From positions 1 through 64,000 of the forward strand of contig JBFXLE010000024.1 in the NCBI GenBank assembly GCA_050173015.1: a stretch of DNA of 64,000 nt. The letters run 5' to 3'. This DNA comes from Calditrichaceae bacterium (GTDB taxonomy: Bacteria > Calditrichota > Calditrichia > Calditrichales > JBFXGD01). Position numbers and translations under genes: made by a program. Below are positions 3,629-55,739 of this stretch, piece after piece. Under the pieces are notes generated by a model. That model did not search any database, had not been told where the DNA came from, and saw nothing but the letters and a program-made list of their open reading frames with translations. Numbering within the stretch: the first letter of the stretch is position 1; each line of letters opens with the position of its first letter.

Positions 3629-3896
3629 TGAGTATGATTATCCTGTGAAAGAAGTTAAAAGCCCGCGTCTGTCATGATGCAATTTTTGTTTAATTTAATG
3701 TATATAAAAATAAATTGCTATTCATCATGAAATTTTTATTCGAAAATTGCATGAGAGAGATGATGCCCTGTTCGTAAGGAGGGAAGTCAAAGTAAAAATG
3801 CCACAAAAATATTAACCGGAATATTATATGTTGATTTTTCCTTCTCACGTATATAATTCTTATACCATTCACGCATCAGCTACGGGGGAAAATCGT

Positions 3897-4799: not shown

Positions 4800-5378
4800 C
4801 TATTTGACCATTCCGGAAAATCCCATAAAAGCCATCGCCAGTATACCGGCCACTATCAGGGCCAGAGGAGAACCGGCGAATAATTTCGGAATTTCTCTTG
4901 TCTCAAGCGCTTCTCTGATTCCGGCAAATAAGATAAGAGCCAACCCGAATCCGATGGCCGAGGCAAAAGAAAAAATCACTGTGCTGAGAAAATCTAAATT
5001 GGACTGAACCGACAAAATGGCAATTCCGAGAATCGCGCAATTGGTAGTGATTAAAGGTAGGAATATTCCGAGCGCCTTGTACAAAGACGGTGCCGTTTTT
5101 TTCATGACAATTTCAACAAACTGCACAAGTGAAGCGATCACCAGGATAAATACAATCGTCTGCAGATATTGAATCCCCGCGGGAACCAGAACATAATTTT
5201 GTATGATATAGGTAATCGCGCCGGCCAGAGTCAATACAAATGTTACTGCCATTCCCATTCCAATGGCGGTATCTGTTTTTTTCGACACTCCCATGTATGG
5301 GCAGATACCCAAAAATTTTGTAAAAACGACATTATTTACAAAGATCGCACTGATGATCATTAATATCATGCTGCCCAT
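4800..5378 (-). CDS. rnfA: Rnf complex subunit A
   Basis: [32 protein letters not shown] overlaps the rnfE TGA. Confidence 0.93.
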
Positions 5379-5980
5379 CAACGGTCTCCTCCGGCCAGTT
5401 TACTGATTTTATTCATCCCCACCATCATAAATCCAAGTGTGATGAATGCTCCCGGCGCCAGAACAAAGAGCAGGATCGTTCGCCACGTCTCCGGCAGGAA
5501 ACGGTGACCCAGCAGCGCTCCGGAACCAAGAATTTCCCTGATACTTCCCAGAATGAACAAAGTAAATGTAAATCCCAATCCCATTGAAATACCGTCGATA
5601 AACGACTCCCATATGCTGTTTTTTGAAGCAAAGGCCTCCGCGCGTCCCAAAATGATACAATTCACGACGATCAGCGGAATAAATAATCCGAGCGTCTTAT
5701 GTAAGTCATACATTGTTGCCTGCAACCCCATATCCACTATGGTAACAAAAGTAGCAATGATAACTATAAACGCCGGGATCCGAACGCGATTCGGGATCAC
5801 ATTTTTTAACGCGGAAACGACAACGTTGGAACCGGTCAAAACAAACAGTGTGCTCAGTCCCATTCCTATACCGTTCTCCGCGGAGGAAGTTACGGCGAGG
5901 GTCGGACAGAGTCCCAAAAGTAGACCGGTCACAGGATTTTCAGTAAACAAGGCCTTTTTAAATTTGGATCCGATATCCAT
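5378..5980 (-). CDS. rnfE: Rnf complex subunit E
   Basis: [34 protein letters not shown]. Confidence 0.95.
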
Positions 5981-6561
5981 TACTCCTGTTCCTCCTTAAC
6001 CGTTTTAAATATTCTTAAAGCGCGTTCCACGCCGGCGGTAAATGCCCTGGATGTAATCGTTGCCGCGGTTATGGCATCCACATCGCCTCCATCCTTTTTA
6101 ACCCGCCATTTCGTGTTTTGAAGAGTTCGGCCGGAGAATTGTTCCTTGAAAAGTGGTTTGGTCATCCCATCCCCCAACCCGGGTGTTTCTTTATGATCAA
6201 GGACATAGGTGTCTAAAATGGTACCTGATGAATCGATACCAACCATCATATCAAAGTCATTGGTAAACCCATTCGGCCCTTTTACAATAATCGCGTATCC
6301 CAAAACAACACTGTCCTCATTCACCGCCTTAAAATATTTTGCCTTTGAACCATCAATCTGTGTTTCAGCCGGATTTTCGGAGAATTTATAATCTTTGATG
6401 CCGTGTAATACAATCCCGATTGCCTTTTTGGTTTCGGCTTTTTTATTAATTTCAATGGGTCCGGTGGTGACTTTATTGACATAGGCCAGAAGTACCGCCG
6501 AACACATCGCGATCAACACAAGAACGATGATGACCCTGAAACCTGATTCTTCTTTAGCCAT
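5980..6561 (-). CDS. rnfG: Rnf complex subunit G
   Basis: N-terminal TM helix, HKETPGLG, DAITAATITS FMN-attachment motif; start could be 6576. Confidence 0.92.
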   Translation of the reverse strand: MAKEESGFRVIIVLVLIAMCSAVLLAYVNKVTTGPIEINKKAETKKAIGIVLHGIKDYKFSENPAETQIDGSKAKYFKAVNEDSVVLGYAIIVKGPNGFTNDFDMMVGIDSSGTILDTYVLDHKETPGLGDGMTKPLFKEQFSGRTLQNTKWRVKKDGGDVDAITAATITSRAFTAGVERALRIFKTVKEEQE

Positions 6562-14074: not shown

Positions 14075-15445
14075 TTAGGCGGAATAAATGATACCGTATT
14101 TATTTATTAAACGGTGCATGGTTCGCCGGTCTATTCCGCAGGCGTCCGCGGCCCGGGTTATATTTCCATTGTATTTTTTTAAATAATTTGTGATATATTT
14201 TTGTTCAAATGTTTCAAGAACCTGTTCCTTTGCTTCCCGGTACGGCATATGCAAAATCTTGTCTAAAATCGCTTCCGCGTTTTTATAGAGAGCGGGTGGA
14301 AGATCTTCCAAACGAATATCGCTTCCCTGGCAAAGATAAAATGCCCTGGTCACGATATTTTGTAGTTCACGCACGTTCCCGGGCCAATGATAATTTATCA
14401 AAGACTCCATTGCGTCTTCAGCGATTCTGATAATATTTTTATCTTCTTTTCTTCTCAATTCATCAAGAAAATGCTCCGCGAGACACTGAATGTCTTCCGG
14501 TCGCTCTCTCAGAGGCGGCACTTCTATATTGATCGTGTTTAACCGGTATAAAAGATCCTTCCTGAGCCCCTTCTCACTCACCATCACTTCCAGATTTTTA
14601 TTGGTAGCGCTGATCACTCTCACATCAACCGGAATTTCCTCCTTGCCGCCCACACGGCGAATTTTCCGTTCTTCGAGCATTCTGAGCAATTTAACCTGAA
14701 GATTAAGCCCCAGATCTCCTATTTCATCCAGAAAAAATGATCCCTTATCCGAAAATTCTACAAGCCCCGGTTTTGTCCTGTTGGCGCCGGTAAACGCCCC
14801 TCTTTCATATCCAAAGAGCTCACTTTCGAATAAATTCTCCGGCAGCGCCGCGCAATTAACAGGTATAAACGGAAATTCCGCGCGTTTACTCAGACGATGA
14901 ATACTCCTTGCGATCAGCTCTTTTCCGGTTCCGCTCTCACCGGTGATCAAAACATTCGCCTGCCCCGATGCCACCTTTCTCACCATCTCAAGAATATCCT
15001 TCATCTTCTCACTCACAAAAATGATATCCGGAAATTCTTTTTGAAGTTGATCTATTTCCAGGGAATCAGAGTTTGATCCGTTTCTGCCGGTAAAGGCCCT
15101 GGACAGCGAATTCATCAGTTTTTTTGAAGTAAACGGCTTTTCGATAAAATCGAATGCCCCCAGACGCATAGCCTCTACACTCGATTCTATAGTGCCATAT
15201 CCGGAAATGACAATAACAAAGATATCAGGGTAATCGGACTTAACTTTTTTTAAAATTTCCAGGCCGGAAATGGATGGCATTTTCAAATCGCAAATCACCC
15301 CGTCATAATTTCCTATGGCCAGAGCATCCAAAGCTTTTCGGCCATCCTGAAAAAGCTCAAGTTCATACTGATTGTTCCTGGATAGTAATTTTCTCAGGCT
15401 GATCAGCATTTCTTCTTCGTCATCAATAATCATTATTCGAATCAT
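14075..15445 (-). CDS. NtrC-family sigma54-dependent response regulator (REC-AAA+-HTH)
   Basis: IIDDE..CDLKMP receiver, GESGTGKE, GAFTGA, WPGNVREL, Fis-type HTH. Confidence 0.95.
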   Translation of the reverse strand: MIRIMIIDDEEEMLISLRKLLSRNNQYELELFQDGRKALDALAIGNYDGVICDLKMPSISGLEILKKVKSDYPDIFVIVISGYGTIESSVEAMRLGAFDFIEKPFTSKKLMNSLSRAFTGRNGSNSDSLEIDQLQKEFPDIIFVSEKMKDILEMVRKVASGQANVLITGESGTGKELIARSIHRLSKRAEFPFIPVNCAALPENLFESELFGYERGAFTGANRTKPGLVEFSDKGSFFLDEIGDLGLNLQVKLLRMLEERKIRRVGGKEEIPVDVRVISATNKNLEVMVSEKGLRKDLLYRLNTINIEVPPLRERPEDIQCLAEHFLDELRRKEDKNIIRIAEDAMESLINYHWPGNVRELQNIVTRAFYLCQGSDIRLEDLPPALYKNAEAILDKILHMPYREAKEQVLETFEQKYITNYLKKYNGNITRAADACGIDRRTMHRLINKYGIIYSA

Positions 15446-15446
15446 G

Positions 15447-16922
15447 CTAGCCTACCGGAAATGTTATCTTAAATGAAGTTCCGTTATTTAATTCACTGGA
15501 AACTTCTATTCTGCCATTGTGATTTTTTATGATATTATTAACAATGTATAATCCAAGACCCGTGCCCTTTCCGGGCGGCTTGGATGAGTAAAACGGTTCA
15601 AATATCTGATGCAGATTTTTGGGCCCGATTCCGCTGCCGTAATCCTTAATTTCAATCTCAATAACAGTTCCGGTCTCCAGCTCTTTATTTCTAAAAATAA
15701 CATCAATTGAGGATCCCTTCTCGGACGCGTCAATCGCGTTGTTAATGAGATTGGTGAAAGCCTGCTCCATTTGTATTGCTTCACCCCATTTATTCCAGTC
15801 TCCACTGTTATGACTGACATTTACCTTAATATCATATTTGTCAAGACGCGGTTGCAGTACTTTCAGGCTTTCAAGCAAGGTTTTCTTGAGATCAATCGAC
15901 TGAAAATTAGTGGGTAATTTCCGACTGTATTTTAGGATACTGGATGTTATTTTTGAAACTTTTTCGATCTGATTGACGATGGTGTCCAAATCTTCTTCAT
16001 ATTCCTTATAATTATCCAAATCATGAAAAACGCTTCTGAGATAATCAGCCCTTGTAAGTATTATTCCTGATGGATTATTTATTTCATGAGCGAGTTCAGC
16101 GGTTAATTCCCCCAGTGTTACAAGACGATCCGCCCTTTGCAACTGTTCCAGATGATAATCATCGAGTTGCTTACGGGATTGATTAAGTTTATTCACCATG
16201 TCATTGAATTGGTCCTGAAGTGTCCTGATCTCAGTAGACCTGTTTACGTCTAACCGGACGGTTAAATTGCCTTTTTCAACCTCATCCATGGCTCCGGCCA
16301 AATTCTTAATAGGCCTGTTGATGTAGCGGTTGAACATGAGATACAAAACACTCCCCAGAATTAGAATCAGTAAGACACCGCTGACCAGAGTCAATCTCAA
16401 TGTATCCCTGAATCTGTATTCCGCCTGCGTGAGATTAAGATCCACATCAACGAAACCGTTAATTTTTTGACCGGCATCATGACAGGTATGGCATTCATTT
16501 CTGTTGATTATCGGAAACATGGCAGAATAAACCGATCCATTATGATAAAATTGGGTGAGTGATGTGTCCTGATCTATTTTAAGATTTTCGTGATAAAGAA
16601 CCTCTTTTATATTTTTATTGATGACTGATTTATGATTGGAATGGGTCACAATACCCTTAGAATTTATGATACTGACCCTGTACACACTATTCAGCTGAGC
16701 AATTTTATCCACAAAAAAGGTCAGTTTTTCGGGCCTCCCGTCCATCATGGCATGTGAAACATCGCAGCGGATGATATCGACAGTCATATTGACCATGTAT
16801 TTGTAAGTTTCCTGGAAGTTATCTCTTATTTTCGAAATTAATAGATAAGTCGGTATTCCGACAGTTACGAGAATTAGAAGTGTAGTGAAGGTGATAAACA
16901 ATGTTTTCAGCGATTTAAACAT
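15447..16922 (-). CDS. Sensor histidine kinase with periplasmic c-type heme motif, HAMP, HisKA and HATPase domains
   Basis: Two TM helices flanking 'PIINRNECHTCH'; LAHEINNP, NLINNAIDA, DYGSGI, GKGTGLGL. Confidence 0.93.
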   Translation of the reverse strand: MFKSLKTLFITFTTLLILVTVGIPTYLLISKIRDNFQETYKYMVNMTVDIIRCDVSHAMMDGRPEKLTFFVDKIAQLNSVYRVSIINSKGIVTHSNHKSVINKNIKEVLYHENLKIDQDTSLTQFYHNGSVYSAMFPIINRNECHTCHDAGQKINGFVDVDLNLTQAEYRFRDTLRLTLVSGVLLILILGSVLYLMFNRYINRPIKNLAGAMDEVEKGNLTVRLDVNRSTEIRTLQDQFNDMVNKLNQSRKQLDDYHLEQLQRADRLVTLGELTAELAHEINNPSGIILTRADYLRSVFHDLDNYKEYEEDLDTIVNQIEKVSKITSSILKYSRKLPTNFQSIDLKKTLLESLKVLQPRLDKYDIKVNVSHNSGDWNKWGEAIQMEQAFTNLINNAIDASEKGSSIDVIFRNKELETGTVIEIEIKDYGSGIGPKNLHQIFEPFYSSKPPGKGTGLGLYIVNNIIKNHNGRIEVSSELNNGTSFKITFPVG

Positions 16923-16947
16923 AAAAATTCCTTCTTACCGATAGATA

Positions 16948-16976
16948 AGTTTATCAAAAAATAAGAATCATGTCAA
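16948..16976 (-). promoter_or_regulatory. Sigma70-type promoter for the kinase/regulator operon
   Basis: Minus strand TTGACA-N17-TAAACT. Confidence 0.7.
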
Positions 16977-17073
16977 ACAGTCCGATTTATTTCAGCTATT
17001 GATATTTCTTCCAAATATATCAAATTTTGTTCCCTTAAATCATACCCCATTTAATGAAAAACGGTGATTTTCA

Positions 17074-17089
17074 GGGGCAATTCTGTCCC
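17074..17089. promoter_or_regulatory. Putative enhancer (UAS) site 1a
   Basis: GGGGCA-ATTC-TGTCCC, matches the GGGACA-N4-TGTCCC motif found four times in this locus. Confidence 0.65.
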
Positions 17090-17160
17090 TATGTCGCGTA
17101 TTGGTTACAGTTCATTATCTCATTAAAAAACAATATCTTATCCAAATTAATGAGAATTTA

Positions 17161-17180
17161 TTGGGACAATATTGTCCCAA
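17161..17180. promoter_or_regulatory. Putative enhancer (UAS) site 1b, perfect 20-bp palindrome
   Basis: TTGGGACAATATTGTCCCAA. Confidence 0.75.
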
Positions 17181-17213
17181 TGACGTAAAAATACGTGTTT
17201 TATCAATCACAGC

Positions 17214-17226
17214 TAAGTATTTGATA
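17214..17226 (-). promoter_or_regulatory. IHF-consensus site between enhancer and sigma54 promoter
   Basis: Minus strand TATCAAATACTTA = WATCAA-N4-TTR. Confidence 0.5.
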
Positions 17227-17243
17227 ATATGTTATTTACCACT

Positions 17244-17269
17244 TTGTGATATTTGGCACAATATATGTA
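17244..17269 (+). promoter_or_regulatory. Sigma54 promoter (non-canonical -12) overlapped by a Rex/CRP-like palindrome
   Basis: TGGCACAATATATGTA (GG 17255-56, GT at -12); TTGTGAT-ATTT-GGCACAA at 17244-17261. Confidence 0.65.
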
Positions 17270-17305
17270 TATAATAATTATGCCTGATAGACTAAAAAGG
17301 ATAGC

Positions 17306-17695
17306 ATGAAAAGACTTCTGGTTTTGTCCTCCGAGTCCGGACTCGTCGAGGATTTTCAGAGTACGCTGAATGGCGTTTCCAAAATAGAAGTAAAATGTTA
17401 TCAGAGCTGTTGTGAGCTGATGGAGGGTTTTCTGACGCTGCACACAGATATGGTATTATTGGATATTGATCTTTTAAAAGAACGGGTGACACATCTCATC
17501 AATGTGCTCAAGCTGATAAAAAGCTCTGTCGTTCTTATCCTGATCCTGTCTGAAGAACACATCTCGATTTGTAAACAAGCATTACCTCTGGGAATCCATT
17601 CATATCTCATAAAACCGGTCTCAGGTAAAGAATTATCCAGAATTGTTAATCCGATCCTGCAACATGGTAATGTAAAAATTGAAAAAGATATATGA
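17306..17695 (+). CDS. Atypical single-domain receiver (REC) protein, cassette 1
   Basis: RBS AAGGA; MVLLDIDLL (phospho-Asp), LILILS, YLIKPVS; paralog of 20253-20609. Confidence 0.8.
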   Translation: MKRLLVLSSESGLVEDFQSTLNGVSKIEVKCYQSCCELMEGFLTLHTDMVLLDIDLLKERVTHLINVLKLIKSSVVLILILSEEHISICKQALPLGIHSYLIKPVSGKELSRIVNPILQHGNVKIEKDI

Positions 17696-17774
17696 TGAAT
17701 AGCTTATTCTTGATAGCTATTCTCTGATCATATAATTAATGGTTTTACCATAATCAAATTACGGAGGGGTTAGT

Positions 17775-19805
17775 ATGAACAAAAAATTACTCTTAATTCT
17801 GGCCATGTTTCTTATCTGCGCTTCACAAATCTTTGCGCAAACAATGAAACTTGGAACCTATGGCGTGTCTCCCCGAGATGTCGTTGCCGATACGGAGGAT
17901 ATTTTTGACAGGGCTTTTAACGGCTTAAACAATGTCGGTATTCAGACACAGATGTATCTTAAGGGAACGCTTAGCGGAGCAAGTCTCACCAATCCAACCT
18001 GGACCGTCACTGCCAAGCCTTCCGGATCATTAGCTGATTTTGGCGCTCTGGCAGTAATTGACACCTCGTCAGAGGTTGTTGTCTTCACTCCTGATTTGGC
18101 GGGTACCTACAAAGTTACCTTTTCAGACGGTGAACTTTCCGCCGAACTGACCATCAACGCGGCAAAATACGTCGGTGTTTATGAAAATTGTACCAATTGT
18201 CATGGGCCTAACACTTTTTTGGATGATATGGTTACTCCCTGGGAGCAAACCGGTCATTATTGGTTATTTGAAGAGGCAATGATGGGAACCGCCAGTGATC
18301 ATTACGGCCCGAATTGCGTCAGCTGTCATACCACCGGGTATGATCTTATGGCCACAAACGATGGCTTTGATGACCGCACTCAGCTAATCGATGGTATTGA
18401 TTCAGTGTGGGCATTCCCCGATTCACTGGCTCCCGGAACATGGGATGCGCTGGTTGCTCTTTATCCTAATTCAATGCACCTTGCCAGAATTCAGTGTGAA
18501 AGTTGTCATGGTCCCGGTGACCGCCACAATGGTAATACAAACGACGCCAGAATGATTGTTGATCTAAAATCGGACAACTGCGCCTGGTGTCATGATTCCG
18601 GAACGCACCATGTCTATCCCGAGCAATGGGATGTCTCAATGCATGGAAACGCCACATCCTATCCGACCGGCGCCGGTCGTTCATCCTGTGTCCCGTGTCA
18701 TACAGGCATCGGATTTGTCCAAAGCTTAAAAGGAGTCACTCCGCTAAACACGGACTACATGCCAATTACCTGCGCGGCTTGTCATGATCCGCACAACCTG
18801 ACCAACGAACATCAGGTAAGGACCGTCGAAGCAACTTTATCCAATGGTGAAGTGGTAACTCAGGGCGGACTTGGCAAGCTTTGTATGAACTGCCATAAAA
18901 GCCGCCGCGATGCCGTAGCCTACACCAATGCCTATCTGACTAACCTGAGCAGTCATTACGGACCGCATGGTAGTTTGCAAGGCGATATGCTGATCGGTAC
19001 AAACGCGGTCACATTTGGAAAAGATTTACCTTCGTCTCCGCATATGGCAGCCACCGAGAACGCCTGCGTTGATTGTCATATGTATCCCGGACACGCTGAC
19101 GAAAGCGGTGAGGTCATATTAAGCGGATCGCACTCCTTTGCCATGAGCACTCCCGATGAAGTTGATAACGTCGCCGCTTGCGCGGATTGTCACGGCAATG
19201 TGGGCACTTCATTCGATGAGAAAAAATACTACATCAATGGAAATGCCGATCATGACGGTGACGGGACCGCCGAAGGATTACAACACGAAGTTGAAGGACT
19301 ATTGGAAGAACTCGCGCTGCTGCTCCCGCCAAAAGGCGAACCGACAGTGGCGATCGACGATTCTTCAGTCACTCTGGTTGAAGCACAGGCCGGTTACAAT
19401 TATTTCTTTGTTGAGGAAGACGGAAGTTTTGGTATCCATAACCCGGCATACACCATTGCACTTTTGAAAGAATCTATCGCCGCGGTAAACGCGACGGGTA
19501 TTTCGGACGATTATAATATTATTCCGGTGAACTATGCTTTAGCTCAGAACTATCCAAATCCATTCAACCCGGAAACGAACATTCATTTTTCACTGGTAAA
19601 ATCCGGTCATGTGTCTCTCGTGGTTTACAACACACTCGGGCAGAAAGTAGCCACTCTTATTGACGACAATATGAATGCCGGCGCGCATGACACAAAATTT
19701 ATCGCGTCTAATCTTTCGTCCGGTGTTTATTTCTACCGTCTGACAGTAACCGCAAATGATGGAAAACAATTTGAGTCTATGAAAAAAATGATATTGATGA
19801 AGTAA
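17775..19805 (+). CDS. Secreted nine-heme c-type cytochrome with T9SS (Por) type C-terminal sorting domain
   Basis: RBS GGAGG; signal peptide; 9 CxxCH (CTNCH, CVSCH, CESCH, CAWCH, CVPCH, CAACH, CMNCH, CVDCH, CADCH); C-terminal 'YALAQNYPNPFNPET..VYNTLGQKVATL..LSSGVYFYRL..KKMILMK'. Confidence 0.92.
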   Translation: MNKKLLLILAMFLICASQIFAQTMKLGTYGVSPRDVVADTEDIFDRAFNGLNNVGIQTQMYLKGTLSGASLTNPTWTVTAKPSGSLADFGALAVIDTSSEVVVFTPDLAGTYKVTFSDGELSAELTINAAKYVGVYENCTNCHGPNTFLDDMVTPWEQTGHYWLFEEAMMGTASDHYGPNCVSCHTTGYDLMATNDGFDDRTQLIDGIDSVWAFPDSLAPGTWDALVALYPNSMHLARIQCESCHGPGDRHNGNTNDARMIVDLKSDNCAWCHDSGTHHVYPEQWDVSMHGNATSYPTGAGRSSCVPCHTGIGFVQSLKGVTPLNTDYMPITCAACHDPHNLTNEHQVRTVEATLSNGEVVTQGGLGKLCMNCHKSRRDAVAYTNAYLTNLSSHYGPHGSLQGDMLIGTNAVTFGKDLPSSPHMAATENACVDCHMYPGHADESGEVILSGSHSFAMSTPDEVDNVAACADCHGNVGTSFDEKKYYINGNADHDGDGTAEGLQHEVEGLLEELALLLPPKGEPTVAIDDSSVTLVEAQAGYNYFFVEEDGSFGIHNPAYTIALLKESIAAVNATGISDDYNIIPVNYALAQNYPNPFNPETNIHFSLVKSGHVSLVVYNTLGQKVATLIDDNMNAGAHDTKFIASNLSSGVYFYRLTVTANDGKQFESMKKMILMK

Positions 19806-19823
19806 GAAAGTGCTCTTCTGATT

Positions 19824-19857
19824 AAGCCTTTCCGCCTCCGGGCGGAAAGGCTTTTTT
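19824..19857 (+). terminator. Intrinsic terminator
   Basis: AAGCCTTTCCGCC-tccg-GGCGGAAAGGCTT followed by a T-tract. Confidence 0.92.
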
Positions 19858-20025
19858 AATTATACACTGTTTCGGATATATATTCAAATAATAAGCCGCT
19901 TCTTAATAACGTTTCTTAAATGAGTATTTTCTTTGAGATACACCTTCAAAAATAATCATATTATGGAGACCGTTTTTTAATATACACCCGAATCTTAGCT
20001 AATTTAGTAAATCCAGTCAAAAACT

Positions 20026-20041
20026 GTGACATTCATGTCTC
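20026..20041. promoter_or_regulatory. Putative enhancer (UAS) site 2a
   Basis: GTGACA-TTCA-TGTCTC. Confidence 0.6.
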
Positions 20042-20113
20042 ACTATTAATCTCGCGTCAAAACAACATATATATTATAAAAACAATTACTTAGAATTATT
20101 TGCTCACTCTATA

Positions 20114-20129
20114 GAGACAGTCTTGTCCC
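20114..20129. promoter_or_regulatory. Putative enhancer (UAS) site 2b
   Basis: GAGACA-GTCT-TGTCCC. Confidence 0.65.
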
Positions 20130-20196
20130 GCTATTTAAATAATACGAATAATTATTGATTCCCATATATTATTGTTTATTAATAAGATAACCCAAA

Positions 20197-20222
20197 TTGT
20201 GATTCTTGGCACAATCCTTGCA
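20197..20222 (+). promoter_or_regulatory. Consensus sigma54 promoter overlapped by a Rex/CRP-like palindrome
   Basis: TTGGCACAATCCTTGCA (GG 20208-09, GC 20220-21); TTGTGAT-TCTT-GGCACAA at 20197-20214. Confidence 0.85.
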
Positions 20223-20252
20223 ACCACCATTACTTTAACAGTAAGGAATTAA

Positions 20253-20609
20253 ATGAAGCATGTAATTATACTCACAGACGAGGAGATATTTGAGGAAAAA
20301 CCGGATTCAGATTTTGATTTTGAGATTCAGACATATAAAGCCTGTTGTACATTTCTCGAAAGTTTTCTCTCAAATCATTACGAACTGGTTATTCTCGATA
20401 TCGATTTGCTGGAACAACGGGTCATGCATATTCTAAAGATTATTAAATTATTAAAAAACTCTGTGCCGGTGATCCTGGTTCTCTCTGACAGTCATATTGC
20501 GACGTGCAAAAAGGCTCTGCCTTACGGAATACTGGCATACTTAATGAAACCTGTGTCACAGAATGAGTTTCATGAGCAATTACAACGATACCTGAGCGAA
20601 AAAATCTGA
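20253..20609 (+). CDS. Atypical single-domain receiver (REC) protein, cassette 2
   Basis: RBS AAGGA; LVILDIDLL, VPVILVLS, YLMKPVS; paralog of 17306-17695. Confidence 0.8.
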   Translation: MKHVIILTDEEIFEEKPDSDFDFEIQTYKACCTFLESFLSNHYELVILDIDLLEQRVMHILKIIKLLKNSVPVILVLSDSHIATCKKALPYGILAYLMKPVSQNEFHEQLQRYLSEKI

Positions 20610-20681
20610 TATTTAATAGGATGTTCAACATTAACAAAAAATCATTATGTCTAACTGTTCATATTATTTAGGAGGGGTCCT

Positions 20682-22418
20682 ATGTTAAGGAGATTAATTT
20701 CTGTCACAATGCCTTTGGTATTTCTTGGTTCATTATTCTTCGGAGGCTGTACAGATGAGACGGAAAAGATTGTCGAAGTCACCGTAAGGGATACTGTCAC
20801 CGTTCATGACAGCATATTTGTGAATGTGATTCCGGTTGTCGTAAATGATATCGTTACAAATCCAGATTCCATCGCTGTCGGCGGCACAATCACATTGACG
20901 GCTGAAACTGATGTTGTCGCTGAAGTCGGAACATTAAAATACTTCTGGGTATCAAGTGATGGAAAATTTGACAAAACCGAAGGTGATACGGTTACATGGA
21001 AAGCTCCGGATGAGGCCGGAACCTATGAGATTGCCGTTCATATCACGGATGGTACCTACATCGGAGTAGGCTCGAGAAATATCGGTGTGGGAATGTATGC
21101 CGCCATCACAGACACATTCTATGTCGGCGGCGCCAAATGCGCCACATGTCATAGCGGTAAAGCGGCTGAATGGCAGGAAACCGGTCATGCGCACGCCTGG
21201 GCAACGCTTCAGAGCAGTGATCATGCCGCTTCATATTGCAATAAATGCCATACGGTAGATTTCAACGAGGTCCCGGGTAACGCCGGATATGATGACGCGC
21301 CGATCGCCATGTTCGAAAATGTCCAGTGTGAAAATTGTCATGGCCCGGGTTCAAAGCATCCGGACTTCACCGCTGAAGACAGAGCTATTACCGTTGATAT
21401 CAGCGCGGAAAACTGCACCACATGCCATTCCGGCGAACATCATCCTTTTAATTCAGACTGGGTAGATTCCAAACATAATTTTGATCCCGCGACCGCGGCA
21501 CACGGCGCGCCGGCGAACAGCTTTTGCCAGCCCTGCCACAGCGGTTCCGGCTTTATTGCTGCTTTCGGTGGCGGTGTTGATCATGATCCCGCGGATCCCG
21601 GTAATGTTTCCTGTTCGACATGTCATAATCCGCACAGTGAAGAAAATCCATTCCAGCTGCGCACACTCGCTGATGTCACTTCCGTGGTCGCCAACAGCGA
21701 ATCCCAGACCATCGCGATCGCCGGAAATGGTCAGCTCTGCGTACAGTGCCATCACGCGCGTCGTTCCGCTGATACTCAAATTGAGACCGGTTATGCTCAT
21801 TTTGGGCCTCACGGTTCACCTCAGGGTGATATGCTGGCGGGAATAAGCGCCTATGAAGGATTTGATTTTGAATTCAGCGGCAAATTTACAAACCATTATG
21901 TGATCGAAAACGGCTGTACGACCTGTCATATGAACGCCACCCCTTATCCGAATGCCAATACGGGGCATACTTTTGAAGCGACGACAAGCTCCTGCGGAAA
22001 ATGCCACGGAACGGTCAGTGATTTTGAGGATATTATGGCAAACAATGACTTTGATGGTGACGGCACAACCGAAGGTTTACAGCTGGAAATTGACGGATTG
22101 ATGGCAAACCTTACATCAGAACTGGTAGCAGCGGGTCTTGATACCGTTGGCATGGATATTCTTACCGCGCTTTCGGAAACAATGAACGACACAACTTTAG
22201 CAGGCGAGCCGACAGCAACGGCACAGATCATCAGAACCGGTGGTTACAATCTGGCTTTTGTACTTGATGATGGAAGCCGCGGTATTCATAATCCTGAGTA
22301 CGCTGTTCAGATTCTGCAGCAGTCAATTCTCTACATGCAGTCTCACAATATGTCAAAGTCGAAAATGACAAATCTGACATTATTAAGTTCACGTGATAAA
22401 GCGGTAAGGAATTTTTAA
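20682..22418 (+). CDS. Nine-heme c-type cytochrome lipoprotein with N-terminal Ig/PKD-like domain
   Basis: RBS AGGAGG; lipobox FFGG-C; 9 CxxCH (CATCH, CNKCH, CENCH, CTTCH, CQPCH, CSTCH, CVQCH, CTTCH, CGKCH); DGSRGIHNP. Confidence 0.92.
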   Translation: MLRRLISVTMPLVFLGSLFFGGCTDETEKIVEVTVRDTVTVHDSIFVNVIPVVVNDIVTNPDSIAVGGTITLTAETDVVAEVGTLKYFWVSSDGKFDKTEGDTVTWKAPDEAGTYEIAVHITDGTYIGVGSRNIGVGMYAAITDTFYVGGAKCATCHSGKAAEWQETGHAHAWATLQSSDHAASYCNKCHTVDFNEVPGNAGYDDAPIAMFENVQCENCHGPGSKHPDFTAEDRAITVDISAENCTTCHSGEHHPFNSDWVDSKHNFDPATAAHGAPANSFCQPCHSGSGFIAAFGGGVDHDPADPGNVSCSTCHNPHSEENPFQLRTLADVTSVVANSESQTIAIAGNGQLCVQCHHARRSADTQIETGYAHFGPHGSPQGDMLAGISAYEGFDFEFSGKFTNHYVIENGCTTCHMNATPYPNANTGHTFEATTSSCGKCHGTVSDFEDIMANNDFDGDGTTEGLQLEIDGLMANLTSELVAAGLDTVGMDILTALSETMNDTTLAGEPTATAQIIRTGGYNLAFVLDDGSRGIHNPEYAVQILQQSILYMQSHNMSKSKMTNLTLLSSRDKAVRNF

Positions 22419-22454
22419 CTGATTTTTAAAAAAAACCGATAAAACTCTGGAAAC

Positions 22455-22481
22455 AAAAAAACCCCGGTCATGCCGGGGTTT
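22455..22481. terminator. Bidirectional intrinsic terminator
   Basis: AAAAAAACCCCGG-tcatg-CCGGGGTTT between convergent genes. Confidence 0.85.
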
Positions 22482-50811: not shown

Positions 50812-53034
50812 TTATAATTTTTTCCTGTTCGTCCTAAAATAAATGGAAGTGATAAACCCGGAAATCATAATCACCGTCCCAAGCCATAAGAGGTTTATAA
50901 GCGGTTTGATTGAAACCTCGACCGCGAGTATTTCTTTACCGTTCGCCGCGTTGGCGGATCCTTTTTGCCTTGCCACGCCCAGCAAAAGAGATTTACTCTC
51001 GACATTAATACTCTTTATAAACACGGAGCGGTCCGTGCCCGGAAGTGTTGCCGGATATATTTCCTTCTCATCTCCACGCATACCGATCGCCGGTTTAATA
51101 ATTTCCTTCAGACCTTCCTTGCCGTTTCCGGTTTCGATTACCGCGGCGATTTTCATGTCGGAACTTGCCATTTCGTGCGAGTTCATATCATATCCGGTAA
51201 AGACAAACGTATAATCACCGTAAACCAGCGGTTCATTCTTTTTTAACTCAAGATCATCCGTTTGCGGGATGGTCTGATCGGCAGGTATAATCTGAATCGG
51301 CGAAATATACAAGTCCTTAAAAATCATGTTCTGTACCGAGGGCGCGACCATATACGCCTGGCTGTACTCACTCCAGTAAAATTTCGCGAAGGTTTCTTTT
51401 GAGTCATTAATAGTGATAAGCACCTTATCCTTGCCGTCCGGAGACGCCAGTTTGCCGCCGTATTTCAAATCGTATCCCATCACATTGCGGTTCGTATCCA
51501 TCGGAAGCGTCACCTTGACCGATGAATCATATACAGACGAGGTGATGATACCGATTAACATCAACCCGATTCCGACATGAGTGAGATACCCTCCGAAAGC
51601 ATAGGTCTTGGCTTTGATCATTCTGTAAACAATCTCACCGTTTATTAAAATAACAAATACGGCAAGAATGGCGATAATCAACGGCACGATATCTCTTATC
51701 CCGAGCGCGAACATGACCGCGCCAAACAAAAGACTGACAACGCCCTGGATAATAACACTTTTTATCTTTTGCGCGCTCTCCCTTTTCCAGCTTAACAAGG
51801 GGGCCAGAGAAATCAGTAACGCGATCAGAATAGCGATCGGACCTGCAAGGGTGTTATAATACTCTATCGAAACATTGGAAGCCGTTCCAAACATCCCTGT
51901 AATTAATGGCGAAGAAGTGCCAAAAAAAGTGAAAGTCGCCAGAACCAACAAGGTTAAAATTCCGAACAACATAAAACTTTCCCTCGTAAAGAAAGCCGTC
52001 TGTACCTTCTCACTTTTAACTTCCTGTACCCTGAACATAAATGTCAGCGCGGCAAGACCGGTAAAAAACACTACAAATCCGATGAGATAAGTCGATAATT
52101 CAGAAGCGCCAAATGAATGGACGGAAAAATCGGTCAACACGCCGCTTCGGGTGAGGAAACTTCCATAGAGCACCAGCACAAAAGTCAGCAGAGCCAGAAA
52201 AATATTCGTTTTCTTCATTCCTCCCTGCTTTTTTTGAATCATGAAACCGTGAATCAACGCCAAAGATGTCAGCCAGGGGATCAGAGAACTGTTCTCCACC
52301 GGGTCCCATCCCCAGTATCCGCCCCAACCGAGCGTTGTGTATGCCCAGTATCCGCCAAGAATGATTCCGGTTCCGAGAGATAATCCCACAAATAGAGCAA
52401 ACGGAAACGCGCTTTTTATCCAGTCATTGTAATTCCTGCGAATCAATGCCGCCATGGCAAAAGCAAAAATGATCATCGTCGAAGAATAGCCGGAAAAGAG
52501 GATCGGCGGGTGGATGGTCATCCATGGATCCTGGAGTAGCGGATTAAGACCATTCCCGTCGAATGGCGCTATACCGGCCTGAAAACCTGACGGGTTAATC
52601 TCCCATACATAAGTGAACGGATTTTTCTTGATCAAAATCATAACGATAAACGCCTGAACAAGATTCATAAAACTCATGACAAGAGGCTCATCCTCTTTTC
52701 TTGAACGAATGATGATCAGCCCGTAAACCGAACCCAAGAGAAGCCATAAAAGGAATGTGCCCTCCTGACCCGCCCAAAAAGTTGAGATAAGATAATAAAG
52801 CGTCAGATCTCTTGATGAATAGCTGAATACATACATCCATTCAAATTTATGATTTATGATGCCCCACATGAGCATTGATGATTGAAGCACAATAAGAGCG
52901 GTCGCGGTGTAAAATCCAAGACGGGCTATCTTCAGAAGCGCGTCTTCTCCGCGTTTATGATATAAATAGTAAGAGGCGATGCTTATGATCAGGGCGACAA
53001 AAGTTAATGAAGTTGCCGTAATTCCTATTATCAT
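50812..53034 (-). CDS. ccmF: Cytochrome c maturation heme lyase CcmF
   Basis: WAGQEGT, GLNPLLQ..IHPP, WGGYWGWDPVEN, LTRSGVL..VHSF; ATG overlaps the ccmE TGA. Confidence 0.95.
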   Translation of the reverse strand: MIIGITATSLTFVALIISIASYYLYHKRGEDALLKIARLGFYTATALIVLQSSMLMWGIINHKFEWMYVFSYSSRDLTLYYLISTFWAGQEGTFLLWLLLGSVYGLIIIRSRKEDEPLVMSFMNLVQAFIVMILIKKNPFTYVWEINPSGFQAGIAPFDGNGLNPLLQDPWMTIHPPILFSGYSSTMIIFAFAMAALIRRNYNDWIKSAFPFALFVGLSLGTGIILGGYWAYTTLGWGGYWGWDPVENSSLIPWLTSLALIHGFMIQKKQGGMKKTNIFLALLTFVLVLYGSFLTRSGVLTDFSVHSFGASELSTYLIGFVVFFTGLAALTFMFRVQEVKSEKVQTAFFTRESFMLFGILTLLVLATFTFFGTSSPLITGMFGTASNVSIEYYNTLAGPIAILIALLISLAPLLSWKRESAQKIKSVIIQGVVSLLFGAVMFALGIRDIVPLIIAILAVFVILINGEIVYRMIKAKTYAFGGYLTHVGIGLMLIGIITSSVYDSSVKVTLPMDTNRNVMGYDLKYGGKLASPDGKDKVLITINDSKETFAKFYWSEYSQAYMVAPSVQNMIFKDLYISPIQIIPADQTIPQTDDLELKKNEPLVYGDYTFVFTGYDMNSHEMASSDMKIAAVIETGNGKEGLKEIIKPAIGMRGDEKEIYPATLPGTDRSVFIKSINVESKSLLLGVARQKGSANAANGKEILAVEVSIKPLINLLWLGTVIMISGFITSIYFRTNRKKL

Positions 53035-53402
53035 ATTTTTGTTCCTTCTTCCTGGTATTTTGACGGACATTTGACTAGAATTTCTTTCGCGTGAAAATTC
53101 CCCTCTTTATACTGTCCGACGCATACCACTTCGGTGGCCTGGTCAAAATTTCCCGGTTTCGCTCCGTCATATACCACATCCACCAACAAACCTTTGTCAT
53201 CCTTCAACTTAAATACAAAAAGATTCTTATCTAAATCGAAATTTCCGTTATCGACACGGGTCCCTTTCACCTGCACCACACTGCCTGATTTTACAGCATC
53301 TTCGATGGATACATAGGGGGTCAGCGTGGAATTAAATGAAATACCCGCCCAAACAGTGAAACCAATGATAATTAAACCACCGATTATATATTTTAAACGC
53401 AT
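53031..53402 (-). CDS. ccmE: Heme chaperone CcmE, CxxxY type
   Basis: N-terminal TM, V.Y.G.KP, 'LVKCPSKY'. Confidence 0.93.
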   Translation of the reverse strand: MRLKYIIGGLIIIGFTVWAGISFNSTLTPYVSIEDAVKSGSVVQVKGTRVDNGNFDLDKNLFVFKLKDDKGLLVDVVYDGAKPGNFDQATEVVCVGQYKEGNFHAKEILVKCPSKYQEEGTKI

Positions 53403-53525
53403 AAAACGTCTCCTTTCGATTATTTAATACTGTATCAACCGCATACAACCCGCAGTTTATACAAACAAAAAACAGAATTGAATGATTTCATCTATATCAA
53501 ATAGTTTCATCCATCAGGACTTTAC

Positions 53526-53654
53526 TCACTCTCCTGATACTTCATTTGCCCGCTTTTTTAACTTCTTTACCTGACCATTCAGATAAAATACATATCCGAA
53601 AACCCCCGTCCATACAATCATATTTATAATGAGCACCACATAAATCGGTTCCAT
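53526..53654 (-). CDS. ccmD: CcmD-family small membrane protein (absent from the ORF track)
   Basis: Read by hand: MEPIYVVLIINMIVWTGVFGYVFYLNGQVKKLKKRANEVSGE (42 aa), RBS GGAG, directly after the ccmC stop. Confidence 0.8.
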   Translation of the reverse strand: MEPIYVVLIINMIVWTGVFGYVFYLNGQVKKLKKRANEVSGE

Positions 53655-54353
53655 TTATATCTCCACTTTGTTTAATTTCAGTTTTACCATAATTAAATCA
53701 AATTTGAGTTTTAAAATCCAAAAGAATAAGACGGTGAATCCGGACAGGGACGACAGAAAAACAGTCAGCATTTTTCCGTCCATGTGGATTTTTCCTTCCT
53801 GGTTAATAAGCGGATCCGGATGCAGAGATGAATAAATCCGCGGAACAATAAAAATGAAGAACGGTACCGTTACAAACGCCAGCAGAGAGTAAACCGCGGA
53901 TAAAGCCGCCTTACGGTCAGGTTGTTCTATCGCCGATCTCAGCGCGAAATACGCGGCATAAATCAAGAGCAAAATAAAAATAGATGTTTCACGCGGATCC
54001 CAGTTCCAGAATGAACCCCAGCTTGCCTTCGCCCAGATCGAACCTGTCACTGTTGCCAGCACACCAAAAAGAAGCCCCATTTCATTGGCCCCTTCGGCAA
54101 ACATGTCATATTTTATATCACGTTTTTTAAGATAGAGAATGCTAAAAAAAGCAGCGACAAAAAACGCGATAACGGTTATCCATGCTGTCGGCACATGAAA
54201 ATATAATACCCGTGTGTATTCGCCAAGACCTTTGGCAATTGGAGCGTAAAGAAACGCGCCCAGAATGACGAGCGTAATCCAGGCAAATAATATAAGCTTC
54301 CAGCCAATTTGCAGTACAGTTTTACCCGGAGAATCTTTTTTTTCTGATACCAT
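53655..54353 (-). CDS. ccmC: Heme delivery protein CcmC
   Basis: YFHVP, WGSFWNWDPRET (WWD), SLHP. Confidence 0.95.
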   Translation of the reverse strand: MVSEKKDSPGKTVLQIGWKLILFAWITLVILGAFLYAPIAKGLGEYTRVLYFHVPTAWITVIAFFVAAFFSILYLKKRDIKYDMFAEGANEMGLLFGVLATVTGSIWAKASWGSFWNWDPRETSIFILLLIYAAYFALRSAIEQPDRKAALSAVYSLLAFVTVPFFIFIVPRIYSSLHPDPLINQEGKIHMDGKMLTVFLSSLSGFTVLFFWILKLKFDLIMVKLKLNKVEI

Positions 54354-54472
54354 ATTAGTCTTCCCTGGTTAATTCTTGATCTTGTTTTAATCTCCTGAAT
54401 GTCTATCTGATTTTAATACCAAGAAGAACTTCAATATTCTCAATTTCATTCCTCTTAAATTCTTTTTATCTA

Positions 54473-55132
54473 TCATTCGTTCCAGACAAATTCAAAAAGC
54501 AGAACCGATGCTGTCAGAACCACCACGCCATAAGCAAATAATGCCTGGAGTTCACTGGAAGCTGCCCAGAAATTAGTCTCAGACGCGGCGATTTTTGTGG
54601 CGCTGATCCCGCTGACTATCACAGGTAACAATATAGGAAATGCCAATACCGTAAACAACGCTCCTTTCGCGCTTGCTTTCGATATAATCGCGGCAACCAT
54701 GGTACCGCCTGAAGCAAGACCAAAGCTTCCCAACATCAACACGGTAAAAAAAAGTAAAAAATTCTGAATCTGCAAATCCATTACAGCGAGAAAAAGGGGG
54801 ATAATGATGATTTCCAGCGCGAACAGGAGGATTAAATTGAAGAAAAATTTGCCAAAAAAAACACTGGAGGCGGTCGCGACAAGCTTCAGTGTATCCGCGG
54901 TATGGGTTTCTTCCTCTCTTACAAAAATGTGGGATAAACCCGACATGGATGAAAAGAAAAGAATAATCCACAGAAGAGCCGCCATAATCTCCTGCCCCGC
55001 GGAATAGGTACCGATAGAAAATGAAACCGCTGTCAGAGTCACGACGGCGAAAAGCAGAATCGCGTTTATCGCGTAGCGGGTTTTAAATTCCTGCCGGACA
55101 TCTTTTAAAAATATATACCAGGCTTTACGCAT
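54473..55132 (-). CDS. ccmB: Heme exporter permease CcmB
   Basis: KDVRQEFKTR, FVREEE, LAFPILLP; six TM helices; position in the operon. Confidence 0.9.
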   Translation of the reverse strand: MRKAWYIFLKDVRQEFKTRYAINAILLFAVVTLTAVSFSIGTYSAGQEIMAALLWIILFFSSMSGLSHIFVREEETHTADTLKLVATASSVFFGKFFFNLILLFALEIIIIPLFLAVMDLQIQNFLLFFTVLMLGSFGLASGGTMVAAIISKASAKGALFTVLAFPILLPVIVSGISATKIAASETNFWAASSELQALFAYGVVVLTASVLLFEFVWNE

Positions 55133-55739
55133 GAATCGGAACCGTCCAATCTGCAAAATCCAGGTCATCGGGATCGTTGGTGGCGATAATCAGTATTTTT
55201 TCCTTCTTTTGATCACGCATAATATCATAAATTGTATTGATTCCCTGCTCATCAAGATTGGATCTGGGTTCGTCCACGAAGAGCACTTCGGGATCATCCA
55301 ACAGCGCGAACACATATTTTAACCGCTGTTTCATGCCTGATGAATAGGTTTTCACATCGTCCTCTTCACGACCGGCAAGATTTAATTTTTTCATTAATCC
55401 GGCGATCTTTTCAGAGCTGTTTTTCACACCTCTCATTTTCGCGAAAAATTCGAGATTTTCCCGCGCGGTCAAATCCTGATATAGTTCCAGATAAGGTCCC
55501 ACCAGCCCAATGTGCTGAAAGATTTTTTCCCGTTCTATGGGCTTACCGTTTTTTTTGTAGGTCACGGTTCCGTGGGTTGGCTGTATTAGATTGGAAAGCA
55601 CTCTCATTAAAGTAGTCTTACCCGAGCCGTTGGGCCCGACGATCGCCATACTCTCTCCGCTGGAGATAGAGAAATTAATTTTTTTGAGAATTCGCTTTTC
55701 TCCGAAATATTTAGTGATGTCGCCGGCAATTATTTCCAT
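55125..55739 (-). CDS. ccmA: Heme exporter ATPase CcmA
   Basis: GPNGSGKTT, YSSGMKQR, FVDEP; first gene of the ccm operon. Confidence 0.88.
   Translation of the reverse strand: MEIIAGDITKYFGEKRILKKINFSISSGESMAIVGPNGSGKTTLMRVLSNLIQPTHGTVTYKKNGKPIEREKIFQHIGLVGPYLELYQDLTARENLEFFAKMRGVKNSSEKIAGLMKKLNLAGREEDDVKTYSSGMKQRLKYVFALLDDPEVLFVDEPRSNLDEQGINTIYDIMRDQKKEKILIIATNDPDDLDFADWTVPIHA

Follow-up and report, generated by a model that had tools for sequence, protein, structure and literature searches.

The 64,000-nucleotide stretch analysed here (the window) comprises positions 1 to 64,000 of contig JBFXLE010000024.1, contig C24 in our numbering, from the Calditrichaceae bacterium assembly GCA_050173015.1 (4.34 Mb, 54 contigs, 97.5% complete), whose nearest relatives carry the label Calditrichota. 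Between positions 14,075 and 22,481 a sensor kinase gene and an NtrC-type activator gene are transcribed divergently from two consecutive cassettes, each with a small receiver-domain (REC) gene followed by a gene for a multiheme cytochrome with nine CxxCH motifs. Sequence comparison places both cytochromes, MHC1 and MHC2, as distant relatives of the surface reductase OcwA, within a very large uncharacterised family of the Fibrobacteres-Chlorobi-Bacteroidetes (FCB) group. With moderate confidence we read the pair of cytochromes as terminal reductases at the cell surface, under redox control, that serve extracellular electron transfer (EET), and we propose that one two-component, sigma-54-dependent regulon would switch on both cytochromes. 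The locus is a new combination of known parts, namely OcwA, porin-cytochrome conduits and BccR-like sigma-54 control. An earlier sequence-only reading of this DNA, which announced a candidate new system, was overstated in this respect given the counterparts that exist in OcwA, the porin-cytochrome complexes and the BccR/sigma-54/cbcBA operon.

MHC1 (17775..19805, plus strand; 676 residues) and MHC2 (20682..22418, plus strand; 578 residues) share 32% identity and contain exactly nine CxxCH motifs each, which confirmed the earlier count. MHC1 begins with a Sec-type signal (N-terminus MNKKLLLILAMFLICASQIFA-Q), followed by a domain resembling immunoglobulin (Ig) and PKD folds, an OcwA-like nonaheme core with C-terminal helices, and a C-terminal domain of type A of the secretion system known as type IX (T9SS). 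This last domain matched PF18962 (Por_Secre_tail) with 37.5 bits (cut-off 27) and TIGR04183 with 39.2 bits (cut-off 23), and the combination of sorting domain and Sec signal that marks T9SS type A cargo was found in MHC1 only. MHC2 has the features of a lipoprotein (Cys23, then TDETE), with an Ig/PKD-like N-domain, an OcwA-like nonaheme core and a C-terminal helical bundle. In an alignment of 21 sequences (alignment A1) all nine CxxCH motifs of MHC2 were conserved, and the lipobox Cys23 was invariant in all 21 aligned relatives. The expectation of one secreted-type and one anchored cytochrome was thus supported, at the level of targeting signals, by the T9SS domain of the former and the lipobox of the latter.

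The best solved relative of both proteins was 6I5B, which is OcwA, the nonaheme surface reductase of Thermincola potens JR (PMC6703420, available part), with phmmer E-values of 1.2e-15 for MHC2 and 6.7e-06 for MHC1. When the AlphaFold2 (AF2) model of MHC2 was searched with Foldseek, 6i5b was matched over 416 columns (E 7e-04) and was the sole multiheme chain at E <= 0.001. Confident parts of the model were limited to the Ig-like domain at the N-terminus and the C-terminal helices (residues 466-483, 493-502, 512-530 and 538-554), in which the predicted local distance difference test (pLDDT) score was about 80-90. These helices, together with a partial Cytochrom_C552 match at the C-terminal part, correspond to the long-helix bundle of NrfA-type proteins, and OcwA is described as having a three-helix C-terminal bundle, an open distal site at hemes 2 and 5 and His/Met ligation at heme 9 (PMC6703420, available part). 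The likeness to OcwA, and to OmhA of Carboxydothermus ferrireducens, comprises nine CxxCH motifs, an N-module of c554 type, a long-helix C-module of NrfA type, sequence homology, the Foldseek match, a His-His pair after heme 4 and the predicted surface location. The pair (H253/H254 of MHC2) was conserved in at least 90% of the 21 sequences, and the THH of MHC1 aligned with SHH in OcwA; at the second OcwA-type histidine site H-x-G-P-H is found here and HHPH in OcwA. The available text of a preprint (Soares et al. 2022) calls the corresponding OcwA histidines catalytic, where H281/282 and H380/381 of OcwA were equated with the residues here through a numbering offset inferred in this analysis, and coordination is not readable from sequence.

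The proteins differ from OcwA in several respects. Identity in the structural alignment was only about 18-19%, the hosts here are Gram-negative FCB bacteria, and MHC1 and MHC2 carry, in addition, an Ig/PKD-like domain at the N-terminus and a T9SS tail (MHC1) or lipid anchor (MHC2). The same preprint, in the part available, describes OcwA and OmhA as "very poorly represented" in databases, whereas the family found here is very large. Identity with NrfA was also considered and rejected, given that neither MHC1 nor MHC2 contains CxxCK or another NrfA-type catalytic motif and that the PF02335 matches (16.1 bits for MHC1, 26.8 bits for MHC2) were below threshold and confined to the C-terminal third.

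Among the 8000 candidates scored for each protein, 362 matched MHC2 and 1095 matched the core of MHC1. A pattern scan of species-representative genomes for the cytochrome family gave at least 615 stretches, of which 580 were confirmed. Within the phylum a member at E <= 1e-40 was present in 38 of 86 genomes and in 27 of 53 high-quality genomes; a tally of 86/86 was discarded, since matches confined to the T9SS domain had inflated it. A gene of the MHC2 type is also carried by three genomes of the phylum that consist of one contig each. PF18962 was carried by 115 of the best 120 MHC1 relatives. The relatives appear in databases as "hypothetical", "T9SS type A sorting domain-containing protein" or "nitrite reductase c552", with several named in full "ammonia-forming cytochrome c nitrite reductase subunit c552". 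The label nitrite reductase c552 is probably a mis-annotation, because the window proteins have no CxxCK and their PF02335 match is limited to the C-terminal helices. No cultured organism was seen among the named relatives, and the available part of the Caldithrix abyssi genome paper contains no mention of the family.

To examine the relationship between the two cytochromes, 80 family members were placed in a maximum-likelihood tree from a quick search, with support from the Shimodaira-Hasegawa-like approximate likelihood ratio test (SH-aLRT) only. The tree was built from complete open reading frames (ORFs) of at least 430 residues with at least seven CxxCH motifs (85 left), from which one duplicate, three over-long ORFs and one ORF with X were then dropped. 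MHC1 fell in a clade of seven T9SS-tailed proteins (SH-aLRT 100), its other members including three other Calditrichota, one Ignavibacteriales metagenome-assembled genome (MAG) and one MAG labelled Bacteroidetes. MHC2 fell in a separate clade with Calditrichota lipoproteins (SH-aLRT 100). A recent tandem duplication of whole cassettes was rejected on this ground: by their placement in the tree the cytochromes are old, deep paralogues, and it is the receiver genes and the layout of the promoters that have the appearance of duplicates. The earlier description of duplicated units was therefore right for the REC genes and the promoter layout but not for the cytochromes. Longer orthologues of the MHC1 type (864-925 residues), with an extra segment of about 200 residues between cytochrome core and T9SS tail, occur in another family of the phylum (L093, which is G004:C7, and G007, G008, G009, G011, G026, G002 and G017; the handles are our own). 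At L093 an activator gene adjoins the cytochrome gene, and no kinase or REC match was seen there.

The outer parts of T9SS, for which a search had been suggested, were found in this genome above the cut-offs (SprA, 868 bits summed; PorV, 270.6 against 250; PorU, 833 against 420); the outright lack of T9SS machinery that, with both proteins periplasmic, would have refuted the earlier reading is therefore not what this genome shows. About 45 other ORFs, two of them in the window, matched the C-terminal-domain part of the PorU model. The search for PorK to PorN was less informative: GldK gave sub-threshold matches only (95 against 350), and the models for GldL, GldM and GldN found nothing in this genome but were silent in control genomes too, so that this is no evidence of absence. 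The likeness to Bacteroidota T9SS cargo such as the gingipains lies in the type A C-terminal sorting domain, in SprA, PorU and PorV, and in the many other C-terminal-domain proteins of the genome, whereas MHC1 differs in being a predicted heme-loaded respiratory cytochrome from a host outside Bacteroidota. No report of a T9SS-exported multiheme cytochrome was found in the open literature with exact-wording searches only. Elsewhere in the window, at 58892-61087 and 469-2220 (both minus strand), two more ORFs carry T9SS C-terminal sorting domains (Por_Secre_tail and CHU_C, respectively) and are unrelated to the cytochromes.

MHC2 is probably surface-exposed, because acidic residues follow its lipid-bearing cysteine. 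The acidic stretch C-[TVE]-[DE]-E recurs throughout the family and may be a sorting signal; it is presumably analogous to the export signal of Bacteroidota lipoproteins. A crude genome-wide control showed this feature to be only mildly discriminating, given that 17 of 96 putative lipoproteins had at least two acidic residues at positions +2 to +5. The stretch directly after the lipid cysteine is also acidic in most of the lipoprotein-type members, including many from Gemmatimonadota (CTDETIVY, CVDEKIVY, CEEEKEKI).

Upstream of the cassettes and on the opposite strand lie the two regulatory genes, in the arrangement that had been claimed for them. The activator gene (14075..15445, minus strand) encodes an NtrC-type sigma-54 enhancer-binding response regulator composed of REC, AAA+ and Fis-type helix-turn-helix (HTH) domains. 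Its Pfam scores were 229.7 bits for Sigma54_activat, 93.9 for Response_reg and 37 for HTH_8, the AAA lid was matched as well, and the GAFTGA and Walker A motifs can be read in the translation. Orthologues with 53-57% identity were found at the same position in L010, L011 and L023. The sensor histidine kinase gene (15447..16922, minus strand) is separated from the activator gene by one base, and the two are predicted to be co-transcribed. In addition to HAMP, HisKA and HATPase_c domains the kinase has a PAS-like periplasmic region with a single CxxCH (residue 144) between two hydrophobic segments, and residues 51-158 matched PF21563, the heme-c sensor family of the Geobacter class-40H chemoreceptors, with 30 bits against a cut-off of 27. 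Direct phmmer matches to the structures 3B42 and 3B47 were weak (E 0.35 and 0.74, respectively). The CxxCH was present at the equivalent position in 5/5 orthologues with divergent synteny and was also found in L051; it was missing in L012 and in three Gemmatimonadota kinases. At L014 (4335-6270; Caldithrix sp. RBG_13_44_9) the kinase gene appears split or truncated (ORFs 4952-5335 and 5332-6270), the 312-residue part has no CxxCH, all genes run in the same direction with REC upstream, and the cytochrome ORF contains masked or unknown residues.

By these matches the kinase is a predicted heme-based sensor with a covalent heme-c domain of the GSU0582/GSU0935 type. The term heme-sensing, which had been applied to the system, was wrong in that the kinase bears a heme-c sensor (PF21563) and does not sense heme. 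It resembles Geobacter GSU0582 and GSU0935 (PDB 3B47 and 3B42; PF21563) in the periplasmic domain with one CxxCH between two membrane helices, and differs from them in that this domain is fused to a HAMP-histidine kinase and not to a chemoreceptor. The proteins of structures 3B42 and 3B47 we take to be redox or ligand sensors.

The two intergenic regions in front of the cassettes have the same layout. Upstream of the first cassette, a distal inverted repeat (GGGGCAattcTGTCCC, GGGGCA..TGTCCC, 17074..17089) and a proximal one (GGGACAatatTGTCCC, the perfect GGGACA-N4-TGTCCC, 17163..17178) are located about 180 and 91 bp, respectively, before a sigma-54-type promoter (TGGCACaatatATGTA, TGGCAC-N5-ATGTA, 17254..17269, plus strand). 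Upstream of the second cassette the distal repeat (GTGACAttcaTGTCTC, GTGACA..TGTCTC, 20026..20041) and the proximal repeat (GAGACAgtctTGTCCC, GAGACA..TGTCCC, 20114..20129) are about 181 and 93 bp before a second promoter (TGGCACaatccTTGCA, 20207..20222, plus strand), which is a perfect TGGCAC-N5-TTGCA. In each region the putative activator sites are thus 91-93 bp and 180-181 bp upstream of the sigma-54-type element. Their common core is GnGACA-N4-TGTCnC, from which the earlier statement of two GGGACA-N4-TGTCCC sites per unit holds for the pairing but not for the exact sequence: only one of the four, that at 17163, is perfect, being also the single copy of the perfect palindrome in the genome, and the three imperfect sites differ at one or two bases. 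The claim of a sigma-54 promoter in each unit likewise held in full for promoter 2, with promoter 1 departing from it at the -12 element.

Sites with at most two mismatches to the palindrome number 85 in the genome. The two intergenic regions, 830 bp in total, contain four of them where 0.016 would be expected, an enrichment that is post hoc since the motif was derived from the same four sites. A sigma-54-like element with sites at about -92 and -181 occurs at only these two places in the genome; a third match at 23309 was regarded as spurious, its site lying 19 bp upstream and inside cysS. The arrangement has also been kept in relatives. In G038, of the same genus, both cassettes are retained and, although bases have changed, their sites still stand at -181 and -92/-93, one of them at the same distance (-181) as the distal repeat of promoter 1, and the ATGT variant at -12 of promoter 1 is found at both of its cassettes. 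In L010, L015 and L023 a sigma-54-like element with a similar palindrome before it lies upstream of the REC gene, and at L017, where no REC was found, upstream of the cytochrome gene. Given the REC/AAA+ (GAFTGA)/HTH activator, the rpoN gene of the genome (421.7 bits) and the -24/-12 promoters with upstream sites, the elements of an NtrC-family sigma-54 regulon are all present by sequence. The strict pattern TGGCAC-N5-TTGCW was matched only five times in the genome, promoter 2 among them, and the genome has about 26 sigma-54 activator genes; because of this disproportion most sigma-54 promoters here must depart from the consensus, as promoter 1 does.

REC1 (17306..17695, plus strand; 129 residues; Response_reg 29.9 bits) and REC2 (20253..20609, plus strand; 118 residues; 38.1 bits) are stand-alone receiver domains with 45% identity to each other and 23-36% identity to the REC genes of other loci. 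In the alignment the phospho-acceptor Asp, the Ser and the Lys are kept, and the acidic pair is degenerate. An intrinsic terminator with a 13-bp stem and a T run (19824..19853, plus strand) was predicted after cassette 1 and a bidirectional one, common to cassette 2 and the convergent cysS, at 22459..22481, so that the small REC gene and terminator described for each unit were both confirmed. No terminator was predicted between the REC gene and its MHC gene in either cassette.

The closest regulatory parallel is in Geobacter sulfurreducens, in which, according to the available part of the report on it, bccR (REC-sigma54-HTH) is divergent from the sigma-54-dependent cbcBA operon, this operon contains a response-regulator gene, and its induction occurs as the redox potential of the acceptor falls. 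The likeness consists of a sigma-54 promoter driving a cytochrome operon with a response-regulator gene inside. In Geobacter, however, the operon so controlled encodes a bc-type quinol oxidase of the inner membrane and not a surface cytochrome, and the part available describes no cognate kinase, whereas here a heme-c sensor kinase is adjacent to the activator, there are two promoters to serve and the regulator inside the operon consists of a receiver domain only.

Electrons would have to reach surface cytochromes through a conduit, and candidates for it were found elsewhere in the genome and at homologous loci. A search with tblastn for homologues identified on contig C15 of this genome (G000; L086:3679-13832, minus strand) a sigma-54-driven operon encoding, in order, a rhodanese, a 388-residue cytochrome, a 398-residue protein, a 295-residue cytochrome, two CbcL-like proteins (651 and 932 residues) and a small cytochrome. 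The operon begins about 100 bp downstream of one of the five strict sigma-54 promoters. In the 295-residue cytochrome 12 CxxCH motifs were counted, and it is homologous to an 11-CxxCH protein of L015. The 398-residue protein was modelled by AF2 with a signal peptide and 22 beta strands (mean pLDDT 71, from an alignment of three sequences only), and this model fits an outer-membrane barrel. A barrel beside multiheme cytochromes, the layout of a conduit, is thus found on C15 and also in the homologous locus of L015, L017 and G044. NapC-like genes were detected by tblastn on contigs C5 and C3, and a Rieske/cytochrome b/multiheme set on C3. In the whole genome there are 27 ORFs with at least four CxxCH motifs, only two of which are on contig C24.

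The gene context was compared at 76 loci of relatives, many of them on short contigs, and the neighbours were annotated at 14 loci (61 proteins). An NtrC-type activator was near the cytochrome in 14/76 loci. The synteny of kinase, regulator, REC and cytochrome that was to be looked for does recur, with the divergent layout found in L010, L011, L015, L023, G040 and G044, and in L017 without a detectable REC. CbcL-like fusions of a multiheme c domain with cytochrome b561 adjoin the activator in L015 and L017 and in L016 and L032 they immediately precede the cytochrome; L013 has a NapC/NirT-type cytochrome upstream, and in L051 a Rieske/cytochrome b/11-CxxCH set stands between the activator and the T9SS-type cytochrome. 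A protein of 392-396 residues, with no Pfam match but homologous to the C15 barrel, comes after the cytochrome at L015 and L017, with more cytochromes downstream, and at L015 the 11-CxxCH cytochrome comes directly after the barrel homologue. At G044 a NapC-like gene, the activator and the kinase are followed divergently by REC, a T9SS-type MHC, another MHC, a barrel homologue of about 390 residues and an 11-heme cytochrome. At L023:7620-11810, in a MAG labelled Bacteroidetes, one REC precedes two T9SS-tailed nonaheme cytochromes in tandem, and the divergent pair of kinase and activator is present as here (57% identity for the activator).

These arrangements resemble the porin-cytochrome conduits of Geobacter (OmaB-OmbB-OmcB and the Ext clusters), both in relatives, by the sequence of a nonaheme lipoprotein, a beta-barrel and an 11-CxxCH cytochrome, and in this genome, by the C15 barrel, the 295-residue multiheme cytochrome and the CbcL-like genes. 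They differ in that the outer partner is OcwA-like and not OmcB-like, the conduit is unlinked to the locus in this genome, and one outer cytochrome would exit by T9SS and not sit in a barrel. OmbB-like porin-cytochrome clusters have been reported in Ignavibacteria (PMC7399161, available part), and one CbcL homologue is tabulated for Calditrichaeota (PMC6295460, available part). The earlier EET reading is plausible, gained support over its first form and was supported in part: the homology to OcwA and the association of the family in relatives with a barrel, an 11-CxxCH cytochrome and quinol dehydrogenases speak for it, and the conduit is not linked to the locus here. The description of the regulon as self-contained was wrong, given that the conduit is on C15 with its own sigma-54 promoter and different upstream repeats.

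A number of observations weigh against the interpretation of the cytochromes as co-regulated surface reductases for EET. Neither a porin nor a quinol dehydrogenase is linked to the locus, as had been noted from the beginning, and the conduit layout is absent from the locus and from the window. The repeats upstream of the C15 operon (TGTTTCAA/TTGAAACA) differ from the window sites, and no GACA-N4-TGTC is found; a common regulon for the window cassettes and the C15 conduit was rejected on these grounds, and because the upstream repeats differ the operon is probably under another of the approximately 26 activators. The structural evidence is limited by the MHC2 model, whose heme core was poor (pLDDT 55) and whose match to 6i5b was consequently weak (template modelling score 0.30-0.34). 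With regard to location, PorK, PorL, PorM and PorN were not detected in the genome with models trained on Flavobacterium, and the acidic residues after the lipid cysteine of MHC2 could instead mean retention. With regard to regulation, the -12 element of promoter 1 is non-consensus, a sigma-70-like match (10/12) at 17246-17275 overlaps it, and the acidic pair of REC1 is replaced by SSES, the clearest degeneration in the receivers. A search for sequencing runs yielded none with RNA among those listed. Finally, the family belongs to the NrfA/c554/MccA/OcwA superfamily with partial Pfam matches to Cytochrom_C552 and Cytochrome_C554, some relatives carry the name nitrite reductase, OcwA itself reduces nitrite and hydroxylamine in vitro, slowly (kcat for nitrite 1 per min; PMC6703420, available part), and the rhodanese that heads the C15 operon points to sulfur chemistry rather than metals.

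This last group of observations supports the main rival explanation, which we regard as unlikely. It holds that the cytochromes are catalytic reductases of a soluble substrate (nitrite, hydroxylamine, nitric oxide (NO), sulfite, tetrathionate or polysulfide) acting in the periplasm or at the surface in respiration or detoxification, and that the heme kinase senses the substrate, e.g. NO or nitrite-derived ligands. The conserved His-His pair, equated with OcwA residues that the available text of the preprint calls catalytic, would also agree with such a role. The same comparison with OcwA tells against it, given the very slow turnover of nitrite by that enzyme, and the window proteins lack CxxCK and any other NrfA-type catalytic motif. 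Moreover, the T9SS tail on MHC1 and on nearly all of its best relatives would place the protein outside the cell, which is needless for a reductase of soluble anions, and relatives link the gene to a barrel and a periplasmic 11-heme cytochrome in the layout of a trans-outer-membrane conduit. Around the family members, the 14 annotated loci showed no nap, nrf or sulfur-reductase genes.

An inward flow, in which Fe(II), reduced humics, sulfide minerals, a cathode or a partner cell would supply the surface cytochromes with electrons for the quinone pool, appears improbable to us. Multiheme wires are reversible in principle, and quinol dehydrogenases of the CbcL/MtoC and NapC/CymA types occur in both metal reducers and metal oxidisers, the sequence being silent on direction (PMC6295460, available part). 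The only characterised homologue, OcwA, is however a terminal reductase (PMC6703420, available part), and no sign of lithotrophy was seen in the genome context, which was not examined in depth. The weakest alternative is that there is no single regulon, the repeats being chance or serving another factor, the kinase-activator pair controlling something else and the cytochromes being expressed independently, e.g. from the sigma-70-like promoter; the weak -12 element of promoter 1 with its overlapping match, the status of activator binding to the repeats as a prediction and the many activators of the genome would allow this, but four related repeats in 830 bp, two distances that are the same in either cassette and again in G038 although the sequences have drifted, a kinase-activator pair adjoining the cytochrome at 14 of the 76 loci in several phyla and also in G040 and G044, and the same type of palindrome in L010, L015, L017 and L023 make it very improbable.

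For the reading we favour, a redox-regulated pair of surface reductases, the following course of events may be proposed. The sensor heme would report on the pool of electron carriers in the periplasm, namely on its redox state (or a ligand), the kinase would phosphorylate the activator, and the activator would bind the paired sites and open both sigma-54 promoters, each driving a bicistron of a receiver followed by a nonaheme cytochrome. Export of the cytochromes would run through Sec, and Ccm would attach their hemes. MHC1 would cross the outer membrane via the type IX system and then be attached or released, and MHC2 would be lipidated and probably surface-exposed. Electrons would reach both from conduits encoded elsewhere, i.e. 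the C15 operon, the NapC-like cytochromes and the Rieske/cytochrome b complex. MHC1 and MHC2 would then reduce insoluble or extracellular acceptors as OcwA does, such as Fe and Mn oxides, humics and perhaps sulfur, and they may also reduce small nitrogen oxyanions. The co-induced receivers might be feedback modulators of the phosphorelay, e.g. a phosphate sink, which is the most speculative step of the scheme and a guess.

Of the remaining features of the window, five genes for cytochrome c maturation by System I (ccmA, B, C, E and F) were identified by Pfam matches at 50812..55739 on the minus strand. They are a supporting function outside the regulon, and the full ccm operon that had been placed about 30 kb away is confirmed to the extent of these five genes. 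The substantial non-overlapping ORFs on the plus strand of the window are the four cassette genes and one ORF at 3828-4739, so that the cassette genes stand almost alone on that strand, as had been noticed, with this single exception.

Knowledge of EET comes chiefly from Shewanella, Geobacter and a small number of Gram-positives, in which surface cytochromes either are secreted by the type II system or form part of porin complexes. The present comparison describes a relative of OcwA that is widespread in Gram-negative FCB phyla in T9SS-tailed and lipoprotein forms and that is accompanied, in Calditrichota and in part of the Ignavibacteria-like relatives, by a heme-based sensor kinase and a sigma-54 activator of its own. 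As a tentative generalisation, which we consider possible without leaning on it, T9SS in FCB bacteria (Calditrichota, Ignavibacteriota, KSB1, Fidelibacterota and others) may serve as a dedicated exporter of heme-loaded respiratory cytochromes, a circuit of heme-sensor kinase, NtrC-type activator and sigma-54 with an in-operon receiver may tune OcwA-like surface contacts by periplasmic redox state, and this large family may mark EET so far unrecognised in several phyla. If the reading favoured here holds, multiheme cytochromes would have a new export route, and the sensor heme, the 16-bp sites and the pair of promoters would make up a compact, testable circuit for redox sensing. The name "nitrite reductase c552" now attached to some members in databases would be corrected as well, and the family would provide a sequence marker of EET potential in abundant, mostly uncultured lineages of sediment and subsurface.

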